Source: Candidatus Cloacimonadales bacterium (GTDB lineage: Bacteria; Cloacimonadota; Cloacimonadia; Cloacimonadales; JAIOQZ01). Taken from it: a DNA stretch of 64,000 nucleotides. Position 1 is the first letter of the stretch; every line of letters begins with the position of its first letter. Of the stretch, positions 21,029 to 35,143 are shown one piece after another. The notes beneath the pieces are model-generated. The model saw only the letters and a list, made by a program, of their open reading frames with translations. It was not told where the DNA came from and did no database searches. The stretch covers positions 2,080,001 through 2,144,000 of the forward strand of contig CAXXTU010000002.1 of NCBI GenBank assembly GCA_963662655.2, written 5' to 3'. The translations under genes and the position numbers were made by a program.

Positions 21029-21745
21029 TTATTCCTTTATTTTCTCTTCGAATAAGTACTCGATTTTCGAAAGGTTGTCTCGAATGAACGATTGCGCGAT
21101 GAACTCGGCGAAGATATCGAGGATGATCAGCGCGTTGATGTGGGTGTCCTTCGCTCGTTGAGACTTTATACGTTTCATCAACGTTGTATTGACCTGATGG
21201 ATCTGGTCGAGATCGGTTGTCAACTCCTGAAGGTCCCAATCGGGCTTCTGCCCCTTTTTCTTGCGGAAGAACTGGCGAACGAGGTACATGGAAATCCAGC
21301 GGTACATGGTCTCTTCCAGCGATGCGAACGGGAGATGGAATCGAACCATCGGGCGCAACGTCGAAAGTACCGGGCAGCCGCAGGTGACAGTGAATATACC
21401 CATTATCGAACTAACACCCTTTTGGAGATCGATCAGTTGCAGGTAGGTTCTTTCCTTCGCTTCCACCCGAACTTCCGCTTTCTCGAAGGATACCAGATTC
21501 TTGAAATAATCGATGATATCCACCAAGCTCGCCGCCACCGGGCAATAGAGATGTTCCTCTTTCGTAAGTGTGCAATTGGGACACTTGTGGAACTCGAGCT
21601 TTGTCCAATCCGGTAGGTCCACGTAAGGCTCTCTTACGAGCTCAAGCGTATCCGGCTTGAGGAAGATATCGATATTCTGCATTTCTCCGTTTTTAAATAT
21701 GAACGTATATGTGAATTTAATTAGCTGCGGGGACATTGCTTGCAT
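21029..21745 (-). CDS. Conserved hypothetical protein (DUF6901-like)
   Basis: WTKLEFHKCPNC..CPVA, CGCP..LRPMVRFHLPF motifs. Confidence 0.7.
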   Translation of the reverse strand: MQAMSPQLIKFTYTFIFKNGEMQNIDIFLKPDTLELVREPYVDLPDWTKLEFHKCPNCTLTKEEHLYCPVAASLVDIIDYFKNLVSFEKAEVRVEAKERTYLQLIDLQKGVSSIMGIFTVTCGCPVLSTLRPMVRFHLPFASLEETMYRWISMYLVRQFFRKKKGQKPDWDLQELTTDLDQIHQVNTTLMKRIKSQRAKDTHINALIILDIFAEFIAQSFIRDNLSKIEYLFEEKIKE

Positions 21746-21908: not shown

Positions 21909-21984
21909 TAAATGATATAGGATGATTTTTGCTGAGAAGAGATGTCGGCGACAATCATTTGACTCAATTTTTACCGGAGGTCGG

Positions 21985-24351
21985 ATGTTTCGTAACTACC
22001 TGGTGATCGCTGTCAGGAACATTGTACGCTACAAGCTGCATTCGCTGATCAATATCATGGGATTGGCGATTAGCTTCGCCGTTTCGATCCTGATCGCGTT
22101 TTGGGTCATGCACGAGTACTCGTACGACAAATTCCACGAGCATATCGACAACATTTACCTCGTGCCGAGTTATGTTTACTATGGGCCTCAGAAGAATTTC
22201 AACACCGGCAGTCCCCCTGCTCTCGCCCATGCTATCGAAACGGAATATCCGGAGGTGATTCGGGCAGGACGTCTTTACAACAGCGATACGAACGTCCTGA
22301 TCCAGGTCGGGCAGGATTCCTTCAAAGAGAAGCTGAACTTCCTTGATCCAGCACTCTTCGATATATTCACGTTTCCATTTGTCAGCGGAGATTTCAAGGC
22401 CGGCGAGATAGATCCCTATTCCCTGGTTGTTTCGGAGACCATCGCGAAGAAATTGTTCGGAGACGTGAATCCGGTCGGGAAAACGGTGGATATCGACGAG
22501 AGGTTCACGTTTACCATTACGGGCGTCTTCCAAGATATCCCCGGGAACTCAACCATCACATTCTCGATGGCCGCGCCCATTATCTTCCTCGAGAATTATT
22601 ATGACAGAGAAGGATACACGCAAACGTGGTATAATTGCAGTTTCCGGTCATACGCCCTGCTGAAGGACAATTTCGATGTAGTGCCGTTTCTGGAGAAGCT
22701 TTCCGGGCGCTGCAAGGAATCGCGACCCGAGAGCGATATCGAGCCATTCCTCTATCCCTATAAAGACCTGTATCTCGTGTTGTACGGTTATTCACGATAC
22801 ACCATGATATTCATCAACATCTGCCTGTTCATTATCTTGATCGCGATGATCAATTTCGCCAACCTCTCGACGGCTTCCGCTTTGCGGAGATCGCGGGAGA
22901 TCGGAATTCGCAAGATATACGGCAGCAGCAGAAAAAGGCTCATGTTTCAATTCATTGGAGAATCGATTCTACTGGCGTTTTTATCTCTCTTCATCAGCAT
23001 TTTCCTGGTCGAGTTCACGCTACCGCTGTTTAACAACCTGACAAACGAGACCTTCTCTTTCAGGAATTTCTTCACTTTCAAACTGGGGTTGATCGGCTTC
23101 GGAATCACCCTCCTCACCGGGCTTCTGGCGGGAATCTATCCTGCTTTCTTGCTTTCGAGATTCAATCCGATTGATGTGCTGAAGAACCCGGATTTCCGTG
23201 TTGGAGGGAAATCGGTGCTGCGCATCATTCTGGTGATTACCCAGTTCATGCTCAGCTCCATTATGTTTATATCCCTCATGTTTGTCATGCAGCAAACCCG
23301 ATACATGATACATAAAAACTTGGGCTTCGATAAGGAAAACCTCGTTGTGATCCCGGTCGAGGGCAATTTGATCGAGCACGCCGAGACCTGGAAGCACGAT
23401 CTGGTGTCGCATCCGGACATCGCTTCAGGAACTCTCTCGTCTCACCTGCCTACCGGTATCTGGTACAACAGCTCCGGCTGGGATTGGGAGGGGCGTCCTG
23501 AAGACCTCGTTTTTCTCGTTACATTCCTTAACATCGATTACGATTACCTCAAGACGATGGACATCGACATGAAGTTGGGTAGCTTCTTCTCGCCTGAGAA
23601 AAACCCGCAAAATTCGTCGAATGTGGTTATAAACGAAGCTTTCGCAGAGAAAATTGGCGTGGAGAATCCGACGGGAATGACGCTTCACTATTCCGGCATC
23701 GACGTGACGGTGATCGGCGTTGTGAACAATTTTAATTACAAGACCCTCGAGTACGAGCTCGGGCCGCTATTGATGCAGTGCACCAACAATGAAGACTTGT
23801 TCGGTTCCATTAAATACAACTACCTCACTTTACGGGTGATAGATAGCGATATTCCCAAGACCATCGAGTACATCGAGAAAGTGACGCGGAAGTTCAATCC
23901 GAGCTACCCCTTCACCTACTTTTTCCTGGACGATCTCCTGCAGAGCCGATACAGAACAAGTCAGAGATTTATGCAGATGGTGGGAAGCTTCACGGTCTTG
24001 GCGCTCTTTATCTCCAGTCTGGGACTGTTCGGACTCGCTTCGTACATGACTCGGCAGCGCACAAGGGAGATCAGTATCAAAAAAGTTCTGGGGGCATCCA
24101 TCACACGCATCAGTCTTACCATGATTTTCGATTTCTGCAAATGGGTTCTTCTGGCGAATATTCTTGCGTGGCCCATCGCATGGTATCTGGTCCGCAAATT
24201 CCTGGAGGCTTATCCGTACAGGATTGATATCGGGCTCCATCCCTTTATGCTTTCGACCCTTATCACCTTCTTCATTGCGGCACTCACCGTAAGTTGGCAA
24301 ACCATCCGCGTCGCCTTTATGACGACAACAAAATCCTTGCAAAACGAATAG
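21985..24351 (+). CDS. MacB/FtsX-family ABC transporter permease (duplicated)
   Basis: MFRNYL.IA.RN, two periplasmic core domains, REIGIRK..G and REISIKKVLGAS; GGAGG RBS. Confidence 0.92.
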   Translation: MFRNYLVIAVRNIVRYKLHSLINIMGLAISFAVSILIAFWVMHEYSYDKFHEHIDNIYLVPSYVYYGPQKNFNTGSPPALAHAIETEYPEVIRAGRLYNSDTNVLIQVGQDSFKEKLNFLDPALFDIFTFPFVSGDFKAGEIDPYSLVVSETIAKKLFGDVNPVGKTVDIDERFTFTITGVFQDIPGNSTITFSMAAPIIFLENYYDREGYTQTWYNCSFRSYALLKDNFDVVPFLEKLSGRCKESRPESDIEPFLYPYKDLYLVLYGYSRYTMIFINICLFIILIAMINFANLSTASALRRSREIGIRKIYGSSRKRLMFQFIGESILLAFLSLFISIFLVEFTLPLFNNLTNETFSFRNFFTFKLGLIGFGITLLTGLLAGIYPAFLLSRFNPIDVLKNPDFRVGGKSVLRIILVITQFMLSSIMFISLMFVMQQTRYMIHKNLGFDKENLVVIPVEGNLIEHAETWKHDLVSHPDIASGTLSSHLPTGIWYNSSGWDWEGRPEDLVFLVTFLNIDYDYLKTMDIDMKLGSFFSPEKNPQNSSNVVINEAFAEKIGVENPTGMTLHYSGIDVTVIGVVNNFNYKTLEYELGPLLMQCTNNEDLFGSIKYNYLTLRVIDSDIPKTIEYIEKVTRKFNPSYPFTYFFLDDLLQSRYRTSQRFMQMVGSFTVLALFISSLGLFGLASYMTRQRTREISIKKVLGASITRISLTMIFDFCKWVLLANILAWPIAWYLVRKFLEAYPYRIDIGLHPFMLSTLITFFIAALTVSWQTIRVAFMTTTKSLQNE

Positions 24352-24558: not shown

Positions 24559-24647
24559 GGACGTACGAGCAAATCCCGGATTGCAGCTTCTCTCAAAAAG
24601 AGAAGCGCGTCTTTCGACGCGCTTCGATATGATACGATTCTAATTAC

Positions 24648-27452
24648 TTACTGACTTGGGAATGCGTTGATCAGGAACGTCAGATGGAAGGTCGAAAGTG
24701 CGGTTCCAACAATCGTGAAAACGATGATTAGGAACTTGGCCGCGTCCTGTGCCTTCAGGGTACCCAAAGTCAATGGTTCCTTCGAAAGGTATGCCGAAGC
24801 TGCGTAAAGCTCTTCACCGATCAGCGTGTAGTCGCAAGTCGTGATGAAGAACGGAATCTGCGTAACCGCGTCCGTACCGGCGATCTGCACACAACCCGCG
24901 GCGTTCCCGGTCTCGGTCATGATCAACGCTTCCGCGAAGAACATACCCATGTAGAAGTTGGTTGCAGTCCGCTCACGAAGCATGATACCGTTCACGCCGG
25001 CAACGTACGCAAACTGGCGTTCCGCAATGAAGAACACGTCGTTGCTGTTGTACGCATCGGGACGACCGGCCTCATAGCAAGCTTCCTTCACGATTTCCTG
25101 CGCGACAGGAAGAACGATGTAGTCGCACACAGGAACTAGAATTCTGCTGTCGTACTCGGCAGCTCTTCTTGCCACGTGACCGAGGATGGAAAGCCCCGCC
25201 AGAGTCGCAACGTCATCGATCGAAGAAAGCCCTGGGACAAACAGCATCGGCCTGCCCATTTCGGTAGCGCGGCCGATCGCGTTGTCGATCTCGGCAAGAC
25301 CGGCAATAGGTCTCACGAAGAATTCTTTTCCGCGCCGTGCCATGAAAATGAACAACCACACAAAGAAACCGAAAAGCAGCGTTGCGATCAGCATCGGATT
25401 CTTGGTGGTGTCAAACCACTCCGATTTCGGGAAAAGGAAGGACTCACCATCGTGCGTGTAAGTCTCCGAAAGCGTGAAGCGTCCCTTGTCGTCGCTCTTG
25501 CAGAACTGATACTCGAAGCTTCTCTTCATCCTGTGACGGAACTCGGAGAGCATTCGCATACGAGCCTTGCCATTTTCGATCTGGTTCGCCTTGCTGATAT
25601 TGGGATCCTCATTCTGCATCCATATCAACGAGCGATAGTACTCCTCGGCTTCTCCGTAATAAGCTTTCTGTTCCTCCGTTTCGGCAGTTGCAACCGAATC
25701 GGCATAAGCGTCCGCTTCTTTCGTCCACTCGGCCATCGACTTCTTTACTTCATCGCCGAAGATCGTCGTTTCGACCATCGTTTTCTTATCGCGATTGTAG
25801 TATACTGTCAAACTCGGTGAAACCAGCAAGATGTCCTTATCAGCATCGAAACGATTCACCAACTTGAAAATGGAATCTTCATAAGGAATGTTATCGTCGT
25901 GGAAACGCTGGTATGGACTCAGCTTTTTCGCGGTACGGTAAACCACGTCCGCAGCGGCTCGTTTGTACAGCTTGTAAACGTAGTTCTGAACGATTTCGCC
26001 ATCAACGGTTAACGGCGCAATCTGGAAATCCTTGAAATCGATGTTGTAGCTTACATTCTGCGTAAGAACGTAATCCTCGGGAACAGCCGTCTTGCCAGTC
26101 TTCAGCTTCATTGACACCAGCAATCCCTTCTCGACCGTTTCATGGTCAGGAACCTTGATGCGAATGATGTTGTCCTGGTAAAACTCGTTCACGTGATCCA
26201 GTAGATTTCCTTCCGCGTCATACACGTCGAAGTAGATATTCTTGATGCGATAATTGTCGTTGATACTGATCTCGTAATTCAAGGTGACGACATCCTCGCT
26301 CGCATAGGAAGCGCTCGATATCTGCACCAATGGCTTTCCGAACACCAGTTCGTTGTACTCGCCCTTGTCATTCGCCTTGTCACGAATGGCAAACTCCGGA
26401 AGCGAGGGAAGCTTCTCGGAAGTTATCGTGTCGAGGGGTACAGGAGACGAGAAAGTCTCTCTTCCGTAGTAATCGATCAGCGAAATCACGAACATCCATG
26501 ACTTCTGCGGATCGTACACGACATCGATGCCGTGATCCTCATCGACAATCCTGCCATCTCTAACATCGACCTGCGCCAGGTCCATGGAAGAATATGGGAA
26601 CGCCGTCTGACGACGGAAGATCATTTGAGCCGGATTCTCCACGGTAAGCGTTGTATCGCCCTGAGCAGCCGCAAACTGGTTGAACTGAGCAACATTCTCC
26701 TGCTCAACCATGTAGATGCTGTGGTACTGGATGTCATCCTTGAATATCGGGAGTTCCCACTCGAACTGCAACCGGTTGGAATCGCTCACATACACGGCAT
26801 TGAGTTTGTGTATCTTCTCAGGGTAGTTATCCTCTGGTGAACCGCTTTCAATCCCGCATGGAGGATAGTGCTTACCCGATTTGTCCACAACGCCGACGGC
26901 GTAGTAGTACGTGTTCCCGGCAAGCAAAGTCGCGTACAGCCCGTCGAACTGGTACAATCCCAGTCCCGCGGAAACGTCTTCGTCTTCCCCTACGATCTTC
27001 TGAGCGCGGTAGTAAAACTCATCGTTGATGATCACGCCCAAAATATAGAAATGCTCCAGCATCGGCCCATACACGTTGATATCGCGCGGTATCTGCCGGT
27101 AGAACGGTGGATCGAGCTGCGTATCCGCCTTCATTGAAGCAGGGGAATACACGGACACGAAATCGAGGAAACCGCGATCGTAGAAATACATCTTATCGCC
27201 GCTTACACCGGTCTTCGCGTTCACCTCGATGCTTCCCATCAGGAAAAGGCTGTCGGGAGTGATTCCACGGTAGATTCGGTACTCGATGATCCGTTGTTCC
27301 TTGGGAAGCGGAGTCCAGCTCAGCATCAAGCCGGAGCCGTCATCGTTGGGAACATCTTCAATTTGTAAGTTTTTGACTTGGTAATCAGCTATGTCTATAG
27401 CGCATATTTGCATTGCTACAACCAGTAGCAGCGCACATAGAAGTCTTTTCAT
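24648..27452 (-). CDS. Large ectodomain (FN3-like) plus C-terminal DUF6754-type membrane domain, paralogue 2
   Basis: Signal peptide; DVPNDDG..L.W..IIEYRIYRG; RPIAGLAEIDNAIGRATEMGRP; QIPFFITTCDYTLIGEELYAA; GAGGT RBS before ATG 27452. Confidence 0.88.
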   Translation of the reverse strand: MKRLLCALLLVVAMQICAIDIADYQVKNLQIEDVPNDDGSGLMLSWTPLPKEQRIIEYRIYRGITPDSLFLMGSIEVNAKTGVSGDKMYFYDRGFLDFVSVYSPASMKADTQLDPPFYRQIPRDINVYGPMLEHFYILGVIINDEFYYRAQKIVGEDEDVSAGLGLYQFDGLYATLLAGNTYYYAVGVVDKSGKHYPPCGIESGSPEDNYPEKIHKLNAVYVSDSNRLQFEWELPIFKDDIQYHSIYMVEQENVAQFNQFAAAQGDTTLTVENPAQMIFRRQTAFPYSSMDLAQVDVRDGRIVDEDHGIDVVYDPQKSWMFVISLIDYYGRETFSSPVPLDTITSEKLPSLPEFAIRDKANDKGEYNELVFGKPLVQISSASYASEDVVTLNYEISINDNYRIKNIYFDVYDAEGNLLDHVNEFYQDNIIRIKVPDHETVEKGLLVSMKLKTGKTAVPEDYVLTQNVSYNIDFKDFQIAPLTVDGEIVQNYVYKLYKRAAADVVYRTAKKLSPYQRFHDDNIPYEDSIFKLVNRFDADKDILLVSPSLTVYYNRDKKTMVETTIFGDEVKKSMAEWTKEADAYADSVATAETEEQKAYYGEAEEYYRSLIWMQNEDPNISKANQIENGKARMRMLSEFRHRMKRSFEYQFCKSDDKGRFTLSETYTHDGESFLFPKSEWFDTTKNPMLIATLLFGFFVWLFIFMARRGKEFFVRPIAGLAEIDNAIGRATEMGRPMLFVPGLSSIDDVATLAGLSILGHVARRAAEYDSRILVPVCDYIVLPVAQEIVKEACYEAGRPDAYNSNDVFFIAERQFAYVAGVNGIMLRERTATNFYMGMFFAEALIMTETGNAAGCVQIAGTDAVTQIPFFITTCDYTLIGEELYAASAYLSKEPLTLGTLKAQDAAKFLIIVFTIVGTALSTFHLTFLINAFPSQ

Positions 27453-27518
27453 ATACAACCTCGTAACAACATCATTTCGGGCTCATAGCCCGAGAACCGG
27501 AAGCATATTCAATGAATA

Positions 27519-27546
27519 ACGGAGTGCCCACAGCGGGACACTCCGC
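27519..27546 (-). other. Intra-operon hairpin before the second DUF6754-type gene
   Basis: Plus strand ACGGAGTGCCCA-cagc-GGGACACTCCGC imperfect inverted repeat. Confidence 0.45.
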
Positions 27547-27572
27547 ATGAAATATGACAGCGGTTGTATCCG

Positions 27573-28172
27573 CTATTTTATCAGACCGAGCCAGTCTCCC
27601 ATCAGGAACTGGATACGACCGATCAGAAGCGAGATACGCGCCATAACGGTATAACCGAATGATGCGCCGAATCCGATCATCATGTACCAGACACCAATCT
27701 TGGAAACCTTGCCGTACCATCCGGTATGCGCCTTCGAGAAATAGAAGTACATGAGGATAGTTACCGTTCCGACGAAAATCAGAGCGGTGTTGATGTTGTC
27801 GATAGGCAGCATTGCGCTACGCATCTGAACCAGAACCTGCGCGTTCATCGAGAGAGGAACGAACATACCGGTGGAGCACATGAAGATAACCATCGGGTAG
27901 CGTGATAGCCAGCTCAGGTTTTTGCTGAAGCGCGTGAGATACAGGATACCGAGCAGAGTCGGAATCAGGATGATGTATTTATGCTGCAGGAATATCGGTG
28001 TGTAGACGTACGGCAGGTAAACCGAGTCGTAAATCAACGGAATCGCATATCCCATTGAGACACCGACGAACAGATGCTCCGCGAACCGGTAGAAGGGGTT
28101 GTCCTTGTACAGGAACGAGAAGATCGATAACGTCAAAAGAGCTGCTACTGTATTACTGACGAGTTCAAACAT
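27573..28172 (-). CDS. Conserved integral membrane protein of the DUF6754-type operon
   Basis: About 6 TM; SFLYKDNPFYRFAEHLFVG; FGASFGYTVMARISLLIGR. Confidence 0.88.
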   Translation of the reverse strand: MFELVSNTVAALLTLSIFSFLYKDNPFYRFAEHLFVGVSMGYAIPLIYDSVYLPYVYTPIFLQHKYIILIPTLLGILYLTRFSKNLSWLSRYPMVIFMCSTGMFVPLSMNAQVLVQMRSAMLPIDNINTALIFVGTVTILMYFYFSKAHTGWYGKVSKIGVWYMMIGFGASFGYTVMARISLLIGRIQFLMGDWLGLIK

Positions 28173-28183
28173 ATCTTCCTCCC

Positions 28184-29515
28184 TTATTTCCCAAGCTTTT
28201 CGCGGCGTTTCTGCAGGAAGAACCCTATGTTACCGAGGATGATGAACAGGATGATCATCAAGTGGGCAACCGTCTGGGCATTCATGCCGATACGAGCCAT
28301 TTTGAATTTGTAGAGGACGTTTTCGCCGGTGATCGTGATGCCCTCGTCGGCGTCTTTCACGATTTCCTTGCTGAAACGTCTCGAGTCGGGAATCAACATA
28401 TCGTCGCCGGCCATAACGTAGCGATCGAATCGATTGATCTTCTTCTCGTCACCGGTCTGCTTTTTTTCTTTCATCGCCTTGGTGATGTAGAAACCTTCGT
28501 CGTTTCTTACCAGGTTGGTGCCATCGACCTTTACCAGGTTACCACCAAAGTCGCGAACGCGACGAGCATTCTCAGAGAGGACAACGTTTCCGTTTTCATC
28601 TTTGATATGGAAGCCGTCCTTACGTTCGTAGATGCTCATGCCGACTTCGTCGAAGGTCTTGTCTTCGATGCGGCCCATGAACTGAGGCTTTTTCACCTTT
28701 ACCAGATTTCCGTCGTAATCGCGGATAAGGTTCTTGCCGGTAGCTTCGAGTTTGTGGTTGGCAAACACGTCAACCAGCTCTTCGTACTCGGCAGCGCCCT
28801 TGAGACCGCCGAGGATACCCACGAGCTGGCCTGTCTGAATGTAGGGATACTGGTCGGCAGCCATAACGGCGGTGATACCCGCGGCAACCTTCGCGCCGAA
28901 GCGTGCACGGGCGAATGTGTACCATGTACCGCCGGCAGAGGATGCCGAGAACTCGATGATGAAGTTCATCTCGTTGTAGTTGGTGATATCCTTCATGGCA
29001 TCGAGGTTTTCAATGTTGCGACCCTCGGCGTCCGTTTCCACGGCCTTGGCGATGTTGTCGCCCATACCGAGAACGATCGGCATGTAAAGGGCGGCGGGTT
29101 TGTAGCCGAAGTTGATATAGTCTTCACCCGATTTGATGTTCGGGAATTCTTCTTTCACGGTGGTGATCGCGAAGTCCATCAGCGGAGAAGCGACCGGAGT
29201 GAAGCAGAGTGTGAAGACGCGAACTTTACGCAGGAAGCAGTGACGCAATACGGAGACTTCCATCGGGAAGAGCTCCGGCATGGTTCCGGCATCGTGCGAG
29301 AACACGAGAAGAACGGCCTTTTCCTGGAATTCCTTTTCACCTTCCTCGGTGATCCGGCCGGCGTAGGAATCGATAAGCTGATAGATGTTCTCCACCGGCT
29401 CCGTCGTGTAGGTACGCTGGTTGAACGGAATCAGGAACGGAATAATGATAGCGAGCGCGACCACGATATAGATGTATCGTCTATCGAGGTGTTGAAGTTT
29501 GTCGAATAAGTTCAT
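28184..29515 (-). CDS. Membrane-anchored alpha/beta protein of the DUF6754-type operon with an internal repeat insertion
   Basis: N- and C-terminal TM; DYINFG; YPYIQTGQLVGILGGLKGAAEYE; AGGAGG RBS before ATG 29515. Confidence 0.88.
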   Translation of the reverse strand: MNLFDKLQHLDRRYIYIVVALAIIIPFLIPFNQRTYTTEPVENIYQLIDSYAGRITEEGEKEFQEKAVLLVFSHDAGTMPELFPMEVSVLRHCFLRKVRVFTLCFTPVASPLMDFAITTVKEEFPNIKSGEDYINFGYKPAALYMPIVLGMGDNIAKAVETDAEGRNIENLDAMKDITNYNEMNFIIEFSASSAGGTWYTFARARFGAKVAAGITAVMAADQYPYIQTGQLVGILGGLKGAAEYEELVDVFANHKLEATGKNLIRDYDGNLVKVKKPQFMGRIEDKTFDEVGMSIYERKDGFHIKDENGNVVLSENARRVRDFGGNLVKVDGTNLVRNDEGFYITKAMKEKKQTGDEKKINRFDRYVMAGDDMLIPDSRRFSKEIVKDADEGITITGENVLYKFKMARIGMNAQTVAHLMIILFIILGNIGFFLQKRREKLGK

Positions 29516-29529
29516 GGTTCCCCTCCTTA

Positions 29530-30156
29530 TCAATCACCGCCACCCAGATAGGTGCGTTCGATTCCAAGTATGATCTTCAGTGAGGTTGCCACCATGCCCA
29601 GACCAACGCCCAACGCGATACCGCGTTTCGCGGCAAGGTTCGGAACGTTGAGGATCCAGGTCGTCGTTTCGGGAATGCCGATTTTTAGTGCGGCGCCCAG
29701 CGGGATACGTCCCAGCATCACGATGATAGCCGCAACCAGCAGAACGGTTGCCTCGATAGAGCGTGCGCGGAATGCCTTGTACGCAGCCGACGCGATGTAG
29801 AACGCCAGCAGCGAGAACATCGTCGCGCCCAGCGGCATCTGGATATTCTCGAATATCCACATATAGGGCGTTCCATCCTGGCGGCCCCAAATGAAGCCGG
29901 CTGCCGCCGTGCCAATCAGGCCCACGAATACAAATACACTATACTGCCAGTTATGTGCTTTTCTCTGGATTTTTGTGCCGTGAATCATGAACAAGCTCAT
30001 CACACCGAGGAGCACGAGAAACGGCGACATCGCCTTCGTCCATACCAGGTACCATTCGAAATAGAAGTCCTGGGATATCTTATGAGGAATGAAGACATGT
30101 GCCACAAAGGTGAAACCAAGTATGATCACGATCAGTAATGGAATGGTTCGTTTCAT
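29530..30156 (-). CDS. Conserved integral membrane protein of the DUF6754-type operon
   Basis: About 6 TM; PLGATMFSLLAFYIASAAYKAFRAR; AAKRGI..G..LG..LGIER. Confidence 0.88.
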   Translation of the reverse strand: MKRTIPLLIVIILGFTFVAHVFIPHKISQDFYFEWYLVWTKAMSPFLVLLGVMSLFMIHGTKIQRKAHNWQYSVFVFVGLIGTAAAGFIWGRQDGTPYMWIFENIQMPLGATMFSLLAFYIASAAYKAFRARSIEATVLLVAAIIVMLGRIPLGAALKIGIPETTTWILNVPNLAAKRGIALGVGLGMVATSLKIILGIERTYLGGGD

Positions 30157-30166
30157 CTATCCTCCT

Positions 30167-33100
30167 CTATTTGTCCGGGAATGCTCTGATGAAGAAGGTC
30201 AGGTGGGACGACGAGAGCGCCGTACCGATGATGACCAGCGCCAGAATAATGAACTTGGCGTAGTCCTGAGCCTTCAGGGTTCCCAGCATCAGGGGCTCGC
30301 GGGCAAGGTAAGCCGCGGCCGCATACAATTCTTCACCGATAAGTGTGTAGTCACAAGTGGTAATAAAGAACGGGATCTGCGTAACCGCGTCCGTTCCGGA
30401 AATCTGAATCGCACCGGTGGTGCTACCGGTTTCGGTCATAATCAGCGATTCGGCGTAGAACATTCCAAGATAGAAGTTCGTTGCAGTTCTCTCGCGGATC
30501 ATGATACCGTTAACGCCGGCAACGTAAGCGAACTGAGACGTCGTCAGGAAGAACACGCTACCTTTATCGTAGGTGTCCGGGCGGCCAGCCTCATAGTGCG
30601 CTTCTTTCACGATTTCCTGTGCAATCGGCATGACGATGTAGTCGCGGCATGGAACGATAAGCTTCGTATCGTATTCGGCCGCCTTCTTCGCCACCTTGCC
30701 CAGAATCGCCAGCGCTGCAAGCGTTGCAACGTCGTTGAGACCAGACATACTCGGTACGAACAGGATCGGACGACCCATCTCCGTAGCGCGTCCGATCGCA
30801 TTATCGATTTCTTCGATACCGGCGATCGGGCGGAGATAGAAGTCGTGGCCCTTGCGTGCGCGACTGATCATGAAGAATACCATCCCACCGAAGATGATGG
30901 TTGCGATCAGCATGGCCCACTTGGAGGTGTCGAACCAGTTCGAGACAGGGAAGAACCTTTCGTTGCCTTTTGCGTCTTTGTAGACTTCCGACATACGGAA
31001 TGCAGCCTGACCGTCCGACTTGATCATGCGGTACTTGAAGTTACGGGCTGCTTTCTCGCGGATCTTCGCGATAAAGTGATTTCTTTTCTTATCGTCTTTA
31101 ATTTGGGCTGCTTTCGCAAGGATTTCGTTGTCAAGCTGTGCCGAGTAGTGATCGATATACATCTGAAAGTGATCTTTTTCGGCATCGGTGGCAGCGGAAT
31201 CTCGCTTTGCAGTGTATTCGTCAACGATCTCCTGAGCATCTTTCTTGTCTTCCTCGAGCACGGATCCGTAGATCGGGATGCTGATGGAAGCCTCGTTCTC
31301 GTAGTCGTAGTTTACAGACAACGAGGTGCTCACCAGGACAATACCTTTGTCCGCGTCATATTCGGAGACGCCTTTGAAGATACTGCGCTCGTAATTAATG
31401 GTGTCGTCGAGCTGACGCATGAAGCCGGAGAGTTTCTTCGCTTCGCGGAAATTGGCCGAGTTTGCCGGCTGCTTTGTGATCATGTAGTAGTAATCATCCA
31501 CGATCTCTGCGCCGTGCATCAACTTCCCTGGTTCCATCGAACGGGAGGTGTCGTTGAAGAAGAGTTCCTGCGTCAACACGTAGTCATCGCCAATCTCTTC
31601 GTCGTGGTTGGTTTTAAAGCGCATCGAGATCGTTACGCCATCCTTCAGATTGTAGCCGTTCGAGGCGGATACCTTGATCTTGTTATCCTGGTAGAACTCG
31701 TTGACGGTGTCAATCTGATTGCCGTCTTTATCAAAGACGTCGAAGTACATATTATAAATCTTGAAATGCTTGTTGGTCTGCGTTTCGTAGTTGACCAAGA
31801 GCTTCTTGATCGTGGAACGAATCAGTTCGCCGTCTTCGTCTTCTTCACGATCTTCGGAAATGATAACCGCTTTGGTAAGGTTCACGATGGGTTTACCCCA
31901 GAAAACGGTGTTGTAATCGCCTTTGTCGTTCTCCTTGTCTTCCACGGTAATGGCCGGAAGAGCTGGGAGGTCGGCATCGGATATCGTCTTTGTAACGATC
32001 GGATCCGAGAATGTCTCGAAACCGGGGTAGTTCTCGTCCGGATACTCGATAAGCGAGAATACGAACAGGTAGTCTCCCATCATTTCGGGATCGATCGGAA
32101 CATTGATACGATTATCTTCATCCTGGATAGCCCACGCACCGTTTTCATCCTGAGTCATATCAACATAGCAGGTTTTCACGGATGTGTAGGGGTAGGCCGT
32201 CGGACGTGTAAAAATGCGCTGGGCAGGATTCTCCACCGGATTCTCGATCTCGGGGATCACTGCGCTTGTATCGATCTTGCTCGCCAGAAGGTTCTTTTCC
32301 TGCTGTTTCAACTGAGCGACATACTGCTGGAATACCGGCAGGTCGTCCTTGTGCATCATGTACACGTTGTGGGAACGGATATCGTCGTTGTTCAGCGGAA
32401 GCGACCACTCGAACTGCAAGCGGTGGATGTCGTTCACGTATACCGAGTAAAATTCCTTCGTTTTCTCCGGTGCGTTGTTTCGCGGCGTCCCGGCCTGCGG
32501 TTCGCAATACGGGAGGAACTTACCGGTTTGGTCCACTGCAAGGACCGTGTACAGGTACTCGTGATCGGGGATCAGTTTCTTGTACATGGTAAGCTGGCGA
32601 ATTGCCAGCCCTGCGTAGGTCTCGATTTCAGGCCCTTCGTCTTCTTCTTCGCCCTCACCTTCTTCCAGATCGCCTTCAGCCTCTTCTTCAGCGGGAGCTT
32701 CGCGCTCGATCTTGGTGGTGTGGTAGTAGAATTCCTTCTTGGGGATAACGCCCAGTATTCGATAGTGCTTCAGCATGGGACCGGTTATCGAAAGGTCCTT
32801 GGGCAGTTCCTGGTAAAGCGGACTATCTGGCGCTTGCTGTTTTTCCTTTTTCAGCTTGCCGGACGCCCGGACATCCAGGAAATAATTGTAGCTTTTGTCG
32901 TAGAAATACATACGATCAGAAGCCACGCCTGTCTTGGGGTTGACAGGAATGCGTCCGATATAGAACAGCGAATCGCTGCTTATACCTCGATACACCCTGT
33001 ACTCAATGATTCGCGCTTCTTTGGGAAGCGGCTCCCAACTGATCTGCAACCCCGTGCCGTCATCGTCGGCAACATCCTCCACCACAAGATTCTGAACTTT

Positions 33101-33184
33101 CATGTCTTGTGCTGCAAGTGGGATCCAGAGCAGTACCAGGAGTGTTGATAGAAACAAGCCGGATAAGAACCGTCGTACAATCAT
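30167..33184 (-). CDS. Large ectodomain (FN3-like) plus C-terminal DUF6754-type membrane domain, paralogue 1
   Basis: Signal peptide; acidic loop EEEAEGDLEEGEGEEEDE; C-terminal domain highly similar to 24648-27452; ATG 33184 chosen on RBS spacing (GTG 33187 is the alternative). Confidence 0.88.
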   Translation of the reverse strand: MIVRRFLSGLFLSTLLVLLWIPLAAQDMKVQNLVVEDVADDDGTGLQISWEPLPKEARIIEYRVYRGISSDSLFYIGRIPVNPKTGVASDRMYFYDKSYNYFLDVRASGKLKKEKQQAPDSPLYQELPKDLSITGPMLKHYRILGVIPKKEFYYHTTKIEREAPAEEEAEGDLEEGEGEEEDEGPEIETYAGLAIRQLTMYKKLIPDHEYLYTVLAVDQTGKFLPYCEPQAGTPRNNAPEKTKEFYSVYVNDIHRLQFEWSLPLNNDDIRSHNVYMMHKDDLPVFQQYVAQLKQQEKNLLASKIDTSAVIPEIENPVENPAQRIFTRPTAYPYTSVKTCYVDMTQDENGAWAIQDEDNRINVPIDPEMMGDYLFVFSLIEYPDENYPGFETFSDPIVTKTISDADLPALPAITVEDKENDKGDYNTVFWGKPIVNLTKAVIISEDREEDEDGELIRSTIKKLLVNYETQTNKHFKIYNMYFDVFDKDGNQIDTVNEFYQDNKIKVSASNGYNLKDGVTISMRFKTNHDEEIGDDYVLTQELFFNDTSRSMEPGKLMHGAEIVDDYYYMITKQPANSANFREAKKLSGFMRQLDDTINYERSIFKGVSEYDADKGIVLVSTSLSVNYDYENEASISIPIYGSVLEEDKKDAQEIVDEYTAKRDSAATDAEKDHFQMYIDHYSAQLDNEILAKAAQIKDDKKRNHFIAKIREKAARNFKYRMIKSDGQAAFRMSEVYKDAKGNERFFPVSNWFDTSKWAMLIATIIFGGMVFFMISRARKGHDFYLRPIAGIEEIDNAIGRATEMGRPILFVPSMSGLNDVATLAALAILGKVAKKAAEYDTKLIVPCRDYIVMPIAQEIVKEAHYEAGRPDTYDKGSVFFLTTSQFAYVAGVNGIMIRERTATNFYLGMFYAESLIMTETGSTTGAIQISGTDAVTQIPFFITTCDYTLIGEELYAAAAYLAREPLMLGTLKAQDYAKFIILALVIIGTALSSSHLTFFIRAFPDK

Positions 33185-33562: not shown

Positions 33563-35143
33563 ATGATCTACATAGACGGACGCTCTCTCACACTGGATCA
33601 GATTCGAAGCGTAGCGCGCGACCGCGAGCAGGTAGCGCTGACCGATGAAGCGAAGAAGCGCGTACAGCGCTGTCGCGATGAGGTCGATCGCATTATCCGC
33701 GACAAGAAAGTTGTTTACGGAATCAATACCGGCTTCGGCGCACTCAAGGATAAGCGGATTCCGGCCGACAAGCTGCGCCAGTTACAGCGCAATCTGATTA
33801 TCAGCCACTCAACCGGCGTAGGCAAGTACCTCCCCGTCGATGTGGTTAGAGCCATGATGCTTCTCCGCGCCAATTCACTTTCCAGCGGATTTTCGGGCAT
33901 CCGGCTCACCACGCTGCAAACGCTGATCGACATGCTGAACAAAGGCGTTCATCCGGCGGTTCCCGAACAGGGTTCTGTGGGCGCGAGCGGGGACCTCGCT
34001 CCACTGTCGCATATCGCGCTCGTGATGACGCGCGACGAGAGCGAAGACTGCGTGGAATGCAGTGGGCGTGTGATCATTGAGGAAAACCGGCATCGCGACG
34101 ACTTCCGGGTCAAGACCGTCACCGGCTACGAAGCCATGCACAACGCGGGTATTGATCGCGTTGTCCTGGATGCGAAAGAGGGACTCGCCCTCAACAACGG
34201 AACCAACATGATGACCGCCGTTGCCGTTTTGGCCGTCTGCGATGCAAAGGTATTGCTCAATAACGCGGTGAAGATTTTCACTGCCTCGCTGGAGGCCCTG
34301 CGCGGCGTTTCGGACGCGTATCATCCGCGTATCCACGAGCTCCGCCGCCAGAAGGGACAGCAGCTTATCGCCCAGCAGGTGCGCGAAAACTATTCCGGCA
34401 GCAAATTGATCGATTCCAGACAGGGTGAAGTGCAAGACAGCTATTCTCTCCGGTGCTTCCCGCAGGTCGTGGGGCCCATCAAGGCGACGATCGATCTCGT
34501 GATGCCCATAATCGAACGGGAAGCGAACGCCGTAACCGACAATCCGCTCATCATTCCCGATGCGGAAGACGGCAAGACATTCCTCTCGGGCGGTAACTTC
34601 CACGGCGAACCCATCGCGCTCGCAAGCGATTACATGAAAATCGCCATGGCGGAACTGGGCAACATCTCCGAGAGACGCATCTTCAAGCTGACCTCGCAGT
34701 ACATCAGCCACGGGCTCCCCAGCATGCTCACCAGCGACCCCGGTCTGCAAAGCGGCGTGATGATTCTCCAGTACACGGCGGCAGCGCTCGCGTCGGAGAA
34801 CAAGGTGCTCGCCCATCCGGCTTGCGTGGATTCAATCCCCACCAGCGAAGACATGGAAGACCACGTATCCATGGGGCCGATCGCGGCACGACAGTTTCGG
34901 GAAATCCTCGAGAACGTGAAACGCATTATCGCGATCGAATACATCACGGCCTGCCAGGCTCTCGATATGCGTTTGCGCATCGACAAAGAGTTCCACGACC
35001 TGACGGCAGAGGAACTTTTCGGGAAAGAGACGCTCGTCATATACAAAAAACTGCGTGAGAAAGGCGTGGAGTTCTGGGAGACGGACAAAGTCGCTTACAT
35101 CGATATCGAGAAAGCGATCGAGCTTCTGGAGGATGAGCTGTAG
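33563..35143 (+). CDS. hutH: Histidine ammonia-lyase
   Basis: VYGINTGFG, LIISH (Ser-His HAL specificity pair), GSVGASGDLAPL (MIO), QDSYSLRC.PQV, GGNFHGEP, EDHVSMG. Confidence 0.93.
   Translation: MIYIDGRSLTLDQIRSVARDREQVALTDEAKKRVQRCRDEVDRIIRDKKVVYGINTGFGALKDKRIPADKLRQLQRNLIISHSTGVGKYLPVDVVRAMMLLRANSLSSGFSGIRLTTLQTLIDMLNKGVHPAVPEQGSVGASGDLAPLSHIALVMTRDESEDCVECSGRVIIEENRHRDDFRVKTVTGYEAMHNAGIDRVVLDAKEGLALNNGTNMMTAVAVLAVCDAKVLLNNAVKIFTASLEALRGVSDAYHPRIHELRRQKGQQLIAQQVRENYSGSKLIDSRQGEVQDSYSLRCFPQVVGPIKATIDLVMPIIEREANAVTDNPLIIPDAEDGKTFLSGGNFHGEPIALASDYMKIAMAELGNISERRIFKLTSQYISHGLPSMLTSDPGLQSGVMILQYTAAALASENKVLAHPACVDSIPTSEDMEDHVSMGPIAARQFREILENVKRIIAIEYITACQALDMRLRIDKEFHDLTAEELFGKETLVIYKKLREKGVEFWETDKVAYIDIEKAIELLEDEL

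Follow-up and report, generated by a model that had tools for sequence, protein, structure and literature searches.

A widespread four-gene DUF6754 membrane module in a Cloacimonadota genome, probably part of an ATP-driven cell-envelope machine

A stretch of 64,000 nucleotides from a Candidatus Cloacimonadales bacterium (GCA_963662655.2, contig CAXXTU010000002.1, positions 2,080,001 to 2,144,000; hereafter the window) contains at 24648..33184 five minus-strand open reading frames (ORFs), A-B-C-D-E, which are judged real, each ATG being preceded by a purine-rich stretch. The first four, A (a DUF6754 protein), B, C and D, form a unit conserved across genomes, and the five-gene form of the window is a lineage variant. 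This module almost always occurs with one very conserved actin-fold ATPase, and is therefore probably part of an undescribed ATP-driven machine of the cell envelope. At slightly less than an even chance, we take this to be a machine for translocation or uptake, in which a shared motor serves interchangeable modules.

The earlier note on this DNA had singled out the operon as the best candidate for an undescribed system in the window. A and E are clear members of DUF6754 (PF20539), a catalogue entry without a function, whereas neither Pfam nor NCBIfam has a family that B, C or D matches above cut-off. Beyond DUF6754, no characterised family or solved sequence was matched, as the note had expected, and no description of the system was found in the literature covered, which did not extend to subscription journals and supplements. 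The system is real and, within reach of this analysis, undescribed; its novelty lies in the whole system.

Co-inheritance with a GlmL-like ATPase

The genome of the window (G000) encodes, 700 kb from the window, an ATPase of 634 amino acids (aa) that matches PF13941 (E-value 1.8e-127), followed by a partner protein of 374 aa (G000:C2:1401.2-1404.2 kb). As judged by its sequence, the ATPase carries intact ASKHA (actin/Hsp70-fold) motifs; the segments T12-K20, D302-D309 and S448-G450, which we take to be the phosphate-1, phosphate-2 and adenosine motifs, are invariant or nearly so in 47 sequences.

In the phylum of this genome, DUF6754 is present in 144 of 151 genomes and PF13941 in 145; six small genomes, all of one family, lack both. 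In the phylum of genome G152, whose locus is named Planctomycetota, DUF6754 and D occur in the identical 33 of 121 genomes; the long ATPase is present in 31 of these 33 and in none of the other 88, and by its coordinates lies within about 6 kb of a DUF6754 gene in 18 of the 31. DUF6754 exceeds the cut-off in 40 of the 264 genomes in the phylum of G151, and the long ATPase is found in those same 40, whereas five genomes with only short GlmL-like matches (31-36% identical; four genomes if the unpublished G529 is not counted) are without DUF6754. All 101 genomes in the class of G155 have DUF6754 (2-10 matches each) and 100 have the ATPase, mostly as a single match; in the five-genome phylum of G153 the numbers are 5/5 and 3/5. 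Operons of the order ATPase-partner-A-B-C-D are frequent (ATPase-partner-A in 13 listed loci), and there is usually one ATPase per several modules. The earlier note had seen neither Walker nor redox-cofactor motifs in the five proteins, and a scan of A-E for Walker A, CxxC, CxxCH, flavin-attachment and lipobox motifs indeed found none. This does not imply that no ATPase is involved, however, because the GlmL-like ASKHA pair encoded elsewhere tracks the module.

The same counts bear on the view that the four-gene module alone is a secondary transporter or channel, with the ATPase pair merely co-inherited. That ATPase and module are unlinked here, as they are in 13 of the 31 genomes from the phylum of G152, and that a few genomes show one side only, would fit this view. 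On the other hand, the identical presence in 40 of 264 genomes, the 31 of 33, and the tight operons in several phyla speak against it, and the exceptions are mostly draft assemblies; it is the least probable of the explanations considered here, and very improbable in itself.

The nearest known relatives of the ATPase are accessory proteins of B12 mutases, GlmL/MutL and Or-4, which share the domain PF13941; hydantoinase A is matched weakly and MreB-like_C at an E-value of 0.069. MutL/GlmL is described as a chaperone that reactivates glutamate mutase (PMC4682846). The linked ATPase differs from GlmL and Or-4 in being about 120 aa longer, in falling below three NCBIfam cut-offs (GlmL NF040745, 222 vs 475; TIGR01319, 161 vs 204; Or-4 NF040744) and in being followed by a barrel-sandwich partner. 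Short GlmL-like forms do not accompany DUF6754, and the glutamate mutase E subunit (PF06368) was not found in G000, a genome 98.95% complete. The same genome also encodes a second, fused form of 1037 aa, in which a diverged GlmL-like ATPase is joined to partner domains (L110:8476-11589; G000:C2:3324.5-3327.6 kb); the ORF ahead of it is presumably TetR-like. Other genomes, too, have fused ATPase-partner forms, of 930-1020 aa, and the 1037-aa fusion supports the idea that ATPase and partner act as one unit.

The partner has barrel-sandwich domains of the RnfC/NqrA type. An ion-coupled or redox energy converter, with a logic akin to transhydrogenase or Rnf/Nqr, is very unlikely: the partner scores well short of the RnfC and NqrA cut-offs and matches no more than the N-terminal domain of those proteins, A-E contain no cofactor motif (neither CxxC nor the S/TGAS/T motif, unlike Rnf/Nqr), B has no cysteine and the alignments of B, C and D no invariant one, and a profile comparison with one PntB sequence stayed at chance level.

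The four-gene unit and its large subunits

Gene order was surveyed in 79 loci of many phyla, drawn from the best 80 of 624 matches, a sample that leans to close relatives. In these loci, 89 DUF6754 genes could be scored, having at least 3.2 kb of downstream sequence; 79 of them are followed by B, C and D, seven stand as additional copies immediately after D, as E does, two have a split gene and one is solitary. The earlier note had proposed a five-gene complex: its genes do co-occur in a fixed order across phyla, but the conserved unit comprises four genes only and E is a duplicate. A second operon, A'-B'-C'-D' (381, 231, 276 and 212 aa), is present in the same genome (C2:998.7-1002 kb; L021:8710-12027). 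Its A' has a short ectodomain, and its DUF6754 domain groups with short Cloacimonadota forms in a distinct clade that is well supported. Close relatives carry the name Cloacimonadota. At another locus (L118:11692-14337), a strongly degenerate A-B-C copy, which does not have the invariant DUF6754 residues, stands behind two normal A genes.

In the window, the sizes and the tight minus-strand arrangement reported in the earlier note are confirmed, with gaps of 10 nt (A-B), 14 nt (B-C), 11 nt (C-D) and 120 nt (D-E). Gene A (33184-30167, minus strand, 1005 aa) begins with a signal-like hydrophobic stretch and an ectodomain of about 730 aa with Fn3-like units, followed by a membrane helix (756-774), the DUF6754 alpha/beta domain and a second membrane helix (978-996). 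Gene E (27452-24648, minus strand, 934 aa) encodes the other large DUF6754 protein, an additional A that has no B, C and D of its own. With a gathering cut-off of 27 bits, PF20539 matches A at residues 748-999 (E-value 4e-117, 390.3 bits) and E at residues 676-929 (E-value 2e-117, 391.5 bits), nearly the full profile in both cases. The two proteins were said to have highly similar C-terminal domains but diverged ectodomains. In an alignment of 984 columns, the DUF6754 parts are 70% identical and the ectodomains have diverged to 43% over 647 aligned pairs, so that the latter are still clearly homologous. A profile of short-A ectodomains matches A at residues 15-110 (E-value 3.5e-13) and 411-455 (1.6e-5), against 0.0019 for the reversed control.

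E retains 25 of 25 invariant DUF6754 residues, and a structure model of its last 264 aa is of high quality (pLDDT 95.1, pTM 0.88). In this model, DUF6754 appears as a generic Rossmann-like domain set between two membrane helices, and the basic cluster following the helix suggests that in A it faces the cytoplasm. The model matches RCK at a level shared with many other Rossmann folds. This bears on a trans-membrane sensor, in which the ectodomains would detect an outside cue and DUF6754 would switch the ATPase pair acting on cytoplasmic targets. The tied RCK match argues against it, as do the lack of a kinase, cyclase, phosphodiesterase or regulator conserved beside the module and a core of about sixteen membrane helices, which seems to exceed the needs of a simple sensor; a sensor is thus unlikely, with roughly one chance in eight.

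The Cloacimonadota-type E of the window is a duplicate of A that is specific to this lineage. Of the other large-type loci, 12 have a second large DUF6754 gene behind D and nine have none, so that E is an additional arm which recurs but is not obligatory. A tree of 40 rows divides the 11 complete copies into two groups, the deeper forks being weakly supported. The D-E gap of the window contains an 11-pair hairpin (27519..27546, minus strand), a candidate terminator or attenuator whose region has a z of -2.82 against 200 shuffles. Strong hairpins of unrelated sequence, judged by eye and without a shuffle control, were seen in nine of the 12 other D-E gaps, which suggests that E is produced at a lower level. 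Directly 3' of E lies a terminator-like hairpin with a T-rich tail (24602..24625, minus strand), a consensus match only, of a kind found 14 times in the region against 8.3 expected.

The smaller membrane proteins and the genomic surroundings

B (30156-29530, minus strand, 208 aa) has about six membrane helices and at least 6913 relatives. Its loop near residue 95, where relatives carry large inserts, presumably faces outward; in Planctomycetota (P0431, P0503 and relatives) the outward-loop inserts reach 300-400 aa and match no Pfam family. C (29515-28184, minus strand, 443 aa) consists of an N-terminal membrane helix, an alpha/beta domain that probably faces outward, an insert of about 160 aa and a C-terminal membrane helix with the invariant residues M411, H418 and N429. 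The insert is lineage-specific, most C relatives being 270-340 aa long, and A and C would have opposite sidedness. D (28172-27573, minus strand, 199 aa) is a polytopic membrane protein with invariant E32, S146, T175, R179 and R186 and a glycine-rich segment, GFGASFG. The conserved polar residues in the membrane segments of C and D hint at a path or site. When 71 relatives of B, 83 of C and 66 of D were scanned, no family was common to more than nine members. Profile scores for A-C and B-D homology, the test for a pseudo-symmetric secondary transporter built on an inverted repeat, equalled those of reversed and shuffled controls. The ORFs opposite A (30089-33148, plus strand, 1019 codons) and opposite C (28262-29509, plus strand, 415 codons) are probably shadows of the coding strand.

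Group II energy-coupling factor (ECF) transporters resemble the system in organisation only, in that several scattered membrane modules share one energising module. At about 200 aa, B and D are similar in length to S-components. However, the motor that tracks the module is of the ASKHA fold (PF13941) and not of the ABC type, A-E have no Walker A motif, and large soluble domains lie on both sides of the membrane. No ECF family was seen among the listed Pfam matches of the 71 B and 66 D sequences (for B, 25 of 53 families listed). One long B relative bears the source name 'ECF transporter S component'. By the features tested, the system is neither ECF nor Rnf/Nqr nor classical GlmL.

PilMNOP of type IV pili offers another likeness, an actin-fold cytoplasmic protein with inner-membrane subunits that have periplasmic domains, and PilM acting with PilNOP is a parallel for a platform of envelope assembly. 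On such a platform, the ASKHA ATPase would organise a trans-membrane complex whose Fn3 and propeller arms place or remodel proteins in the periplasm or on the surface, no solute crossing the membrane. The ectodomains of DUF6754 proteins vary among fn3, PQQ-type propeller and HEAT, with FG-GAP parts too. Their exchangeable ectodomains fit the earlier note, which had spoken of interchangeable receptor subunits, and such parts on the outer side would suit a scaffold. So would a retention like that of housekeeping genes (144 of 151 genomes in one sample, all 101 in another), the 57-69% identity of the ATPase between phyla, and the model of B alone, which is not a compact single-domain fold (pLDDT 78.3, pTM 0.54). 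Against a scaffold, the ATPase matches GlmL and Or-4 but not PilM, FtsA or, apart from the weak MreB-like_C match, MreB. It belongs to another ASKHA branch than PilM, the core is polytopic, and no pilin, secretin or division gene was found among recurrent neighbours in the 20 representatives scanned, nor any pilus gene among the scanned neighbours. The polar residues of C and D also suggest a path or site. We consider the scaffold rather unlikely, at about one chance in four.

The genes that recur near the system are glycine cleavage P2, located upstream of the ATPase in 5 loci, two small unknown ORFs and lineage-specific genes. In L049, L050, L053, L074 and L118, P2 is two or three genes away from the system; glycine cleavage H is close by in two loci and a lipoate ligase in two. 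An ORF of 117-151 aa without a known family is located directly upstream of the ATPase in six loci (L053:4986-5366, L064, L074, L086, L118 and L120), and it is possibly a seventh component. The window itself has, divergent from A, a gene of the aromatic amino acid lyase family (33563-35140, plus strand), a MacB/FtsX permease convergent with E (21922-24351, plus strand) and a DUF6901 gene (21029-21745, minus strand), none of which belongs to the genes that recur beside the module at other loci.

The proposed mechanism and its meaning

Under the translocation or uptake reading, A, B, C and D would form an inner-membrane module powered by a cytoplasmic motor, the ATPase and its partner, encoded elsewhere. 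The ectodomain of A and the domain of C would point outward and engage cargo, while B and D would form the membrane core. Related ASKHA chaperones remodel or reactivate B12 enzymes; by analogy, the ATPase may dock on the inward DUF6754 domain and remodel it, which would drive a solute or macromolecule across the membrane via B-D. E would be an alternative, probably less abundant A subunit using the same B-C-D core. In its fullest form, which we put forward as a tentative proposal somewhat short of an even chance, this is a primary active machine powered by an ASKHA ATPase rather than by an ABC, AAA+, P-type or rotary one, whose motor pair docks on the DUF6754 domain of interchangeable four-subunit modules, with the arms A and E, in this lineage, competing for one core. 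We know of no class of transporter that draws its power directly from an ASKHA ATPase.

Several points weigh against a transport machine. The data show neither transport nor a cargo nor a direction; the module is accompanied by no substrate-binding protein and no conserved catabolic flank, the flanks being mostly lineage-specific; and Fn3 and propeller ectodomains suit scaffolding or sensing equally well. Genome G069 (93% complete) has the ATPase family without DUF6754 and D, and G205, G208, G276 and G277 have DUF6754 without a detected ATPase. Moreover, genomes within a phylum are kin, so that the counts overstate independence. Kinship aside, the pattern of ATPase and DUF6754 recurs in separate phyla, with a built-in control.

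The system is near-universal in whole uncultured lineages, as its presence in 144 of 151 and in all 101 sampled genomes indicates. Cultured, named Planctomycetota, Rubinisphaera brasiliensis among them (by source name), also have long B relatives, and this opens the system to genetic testing.
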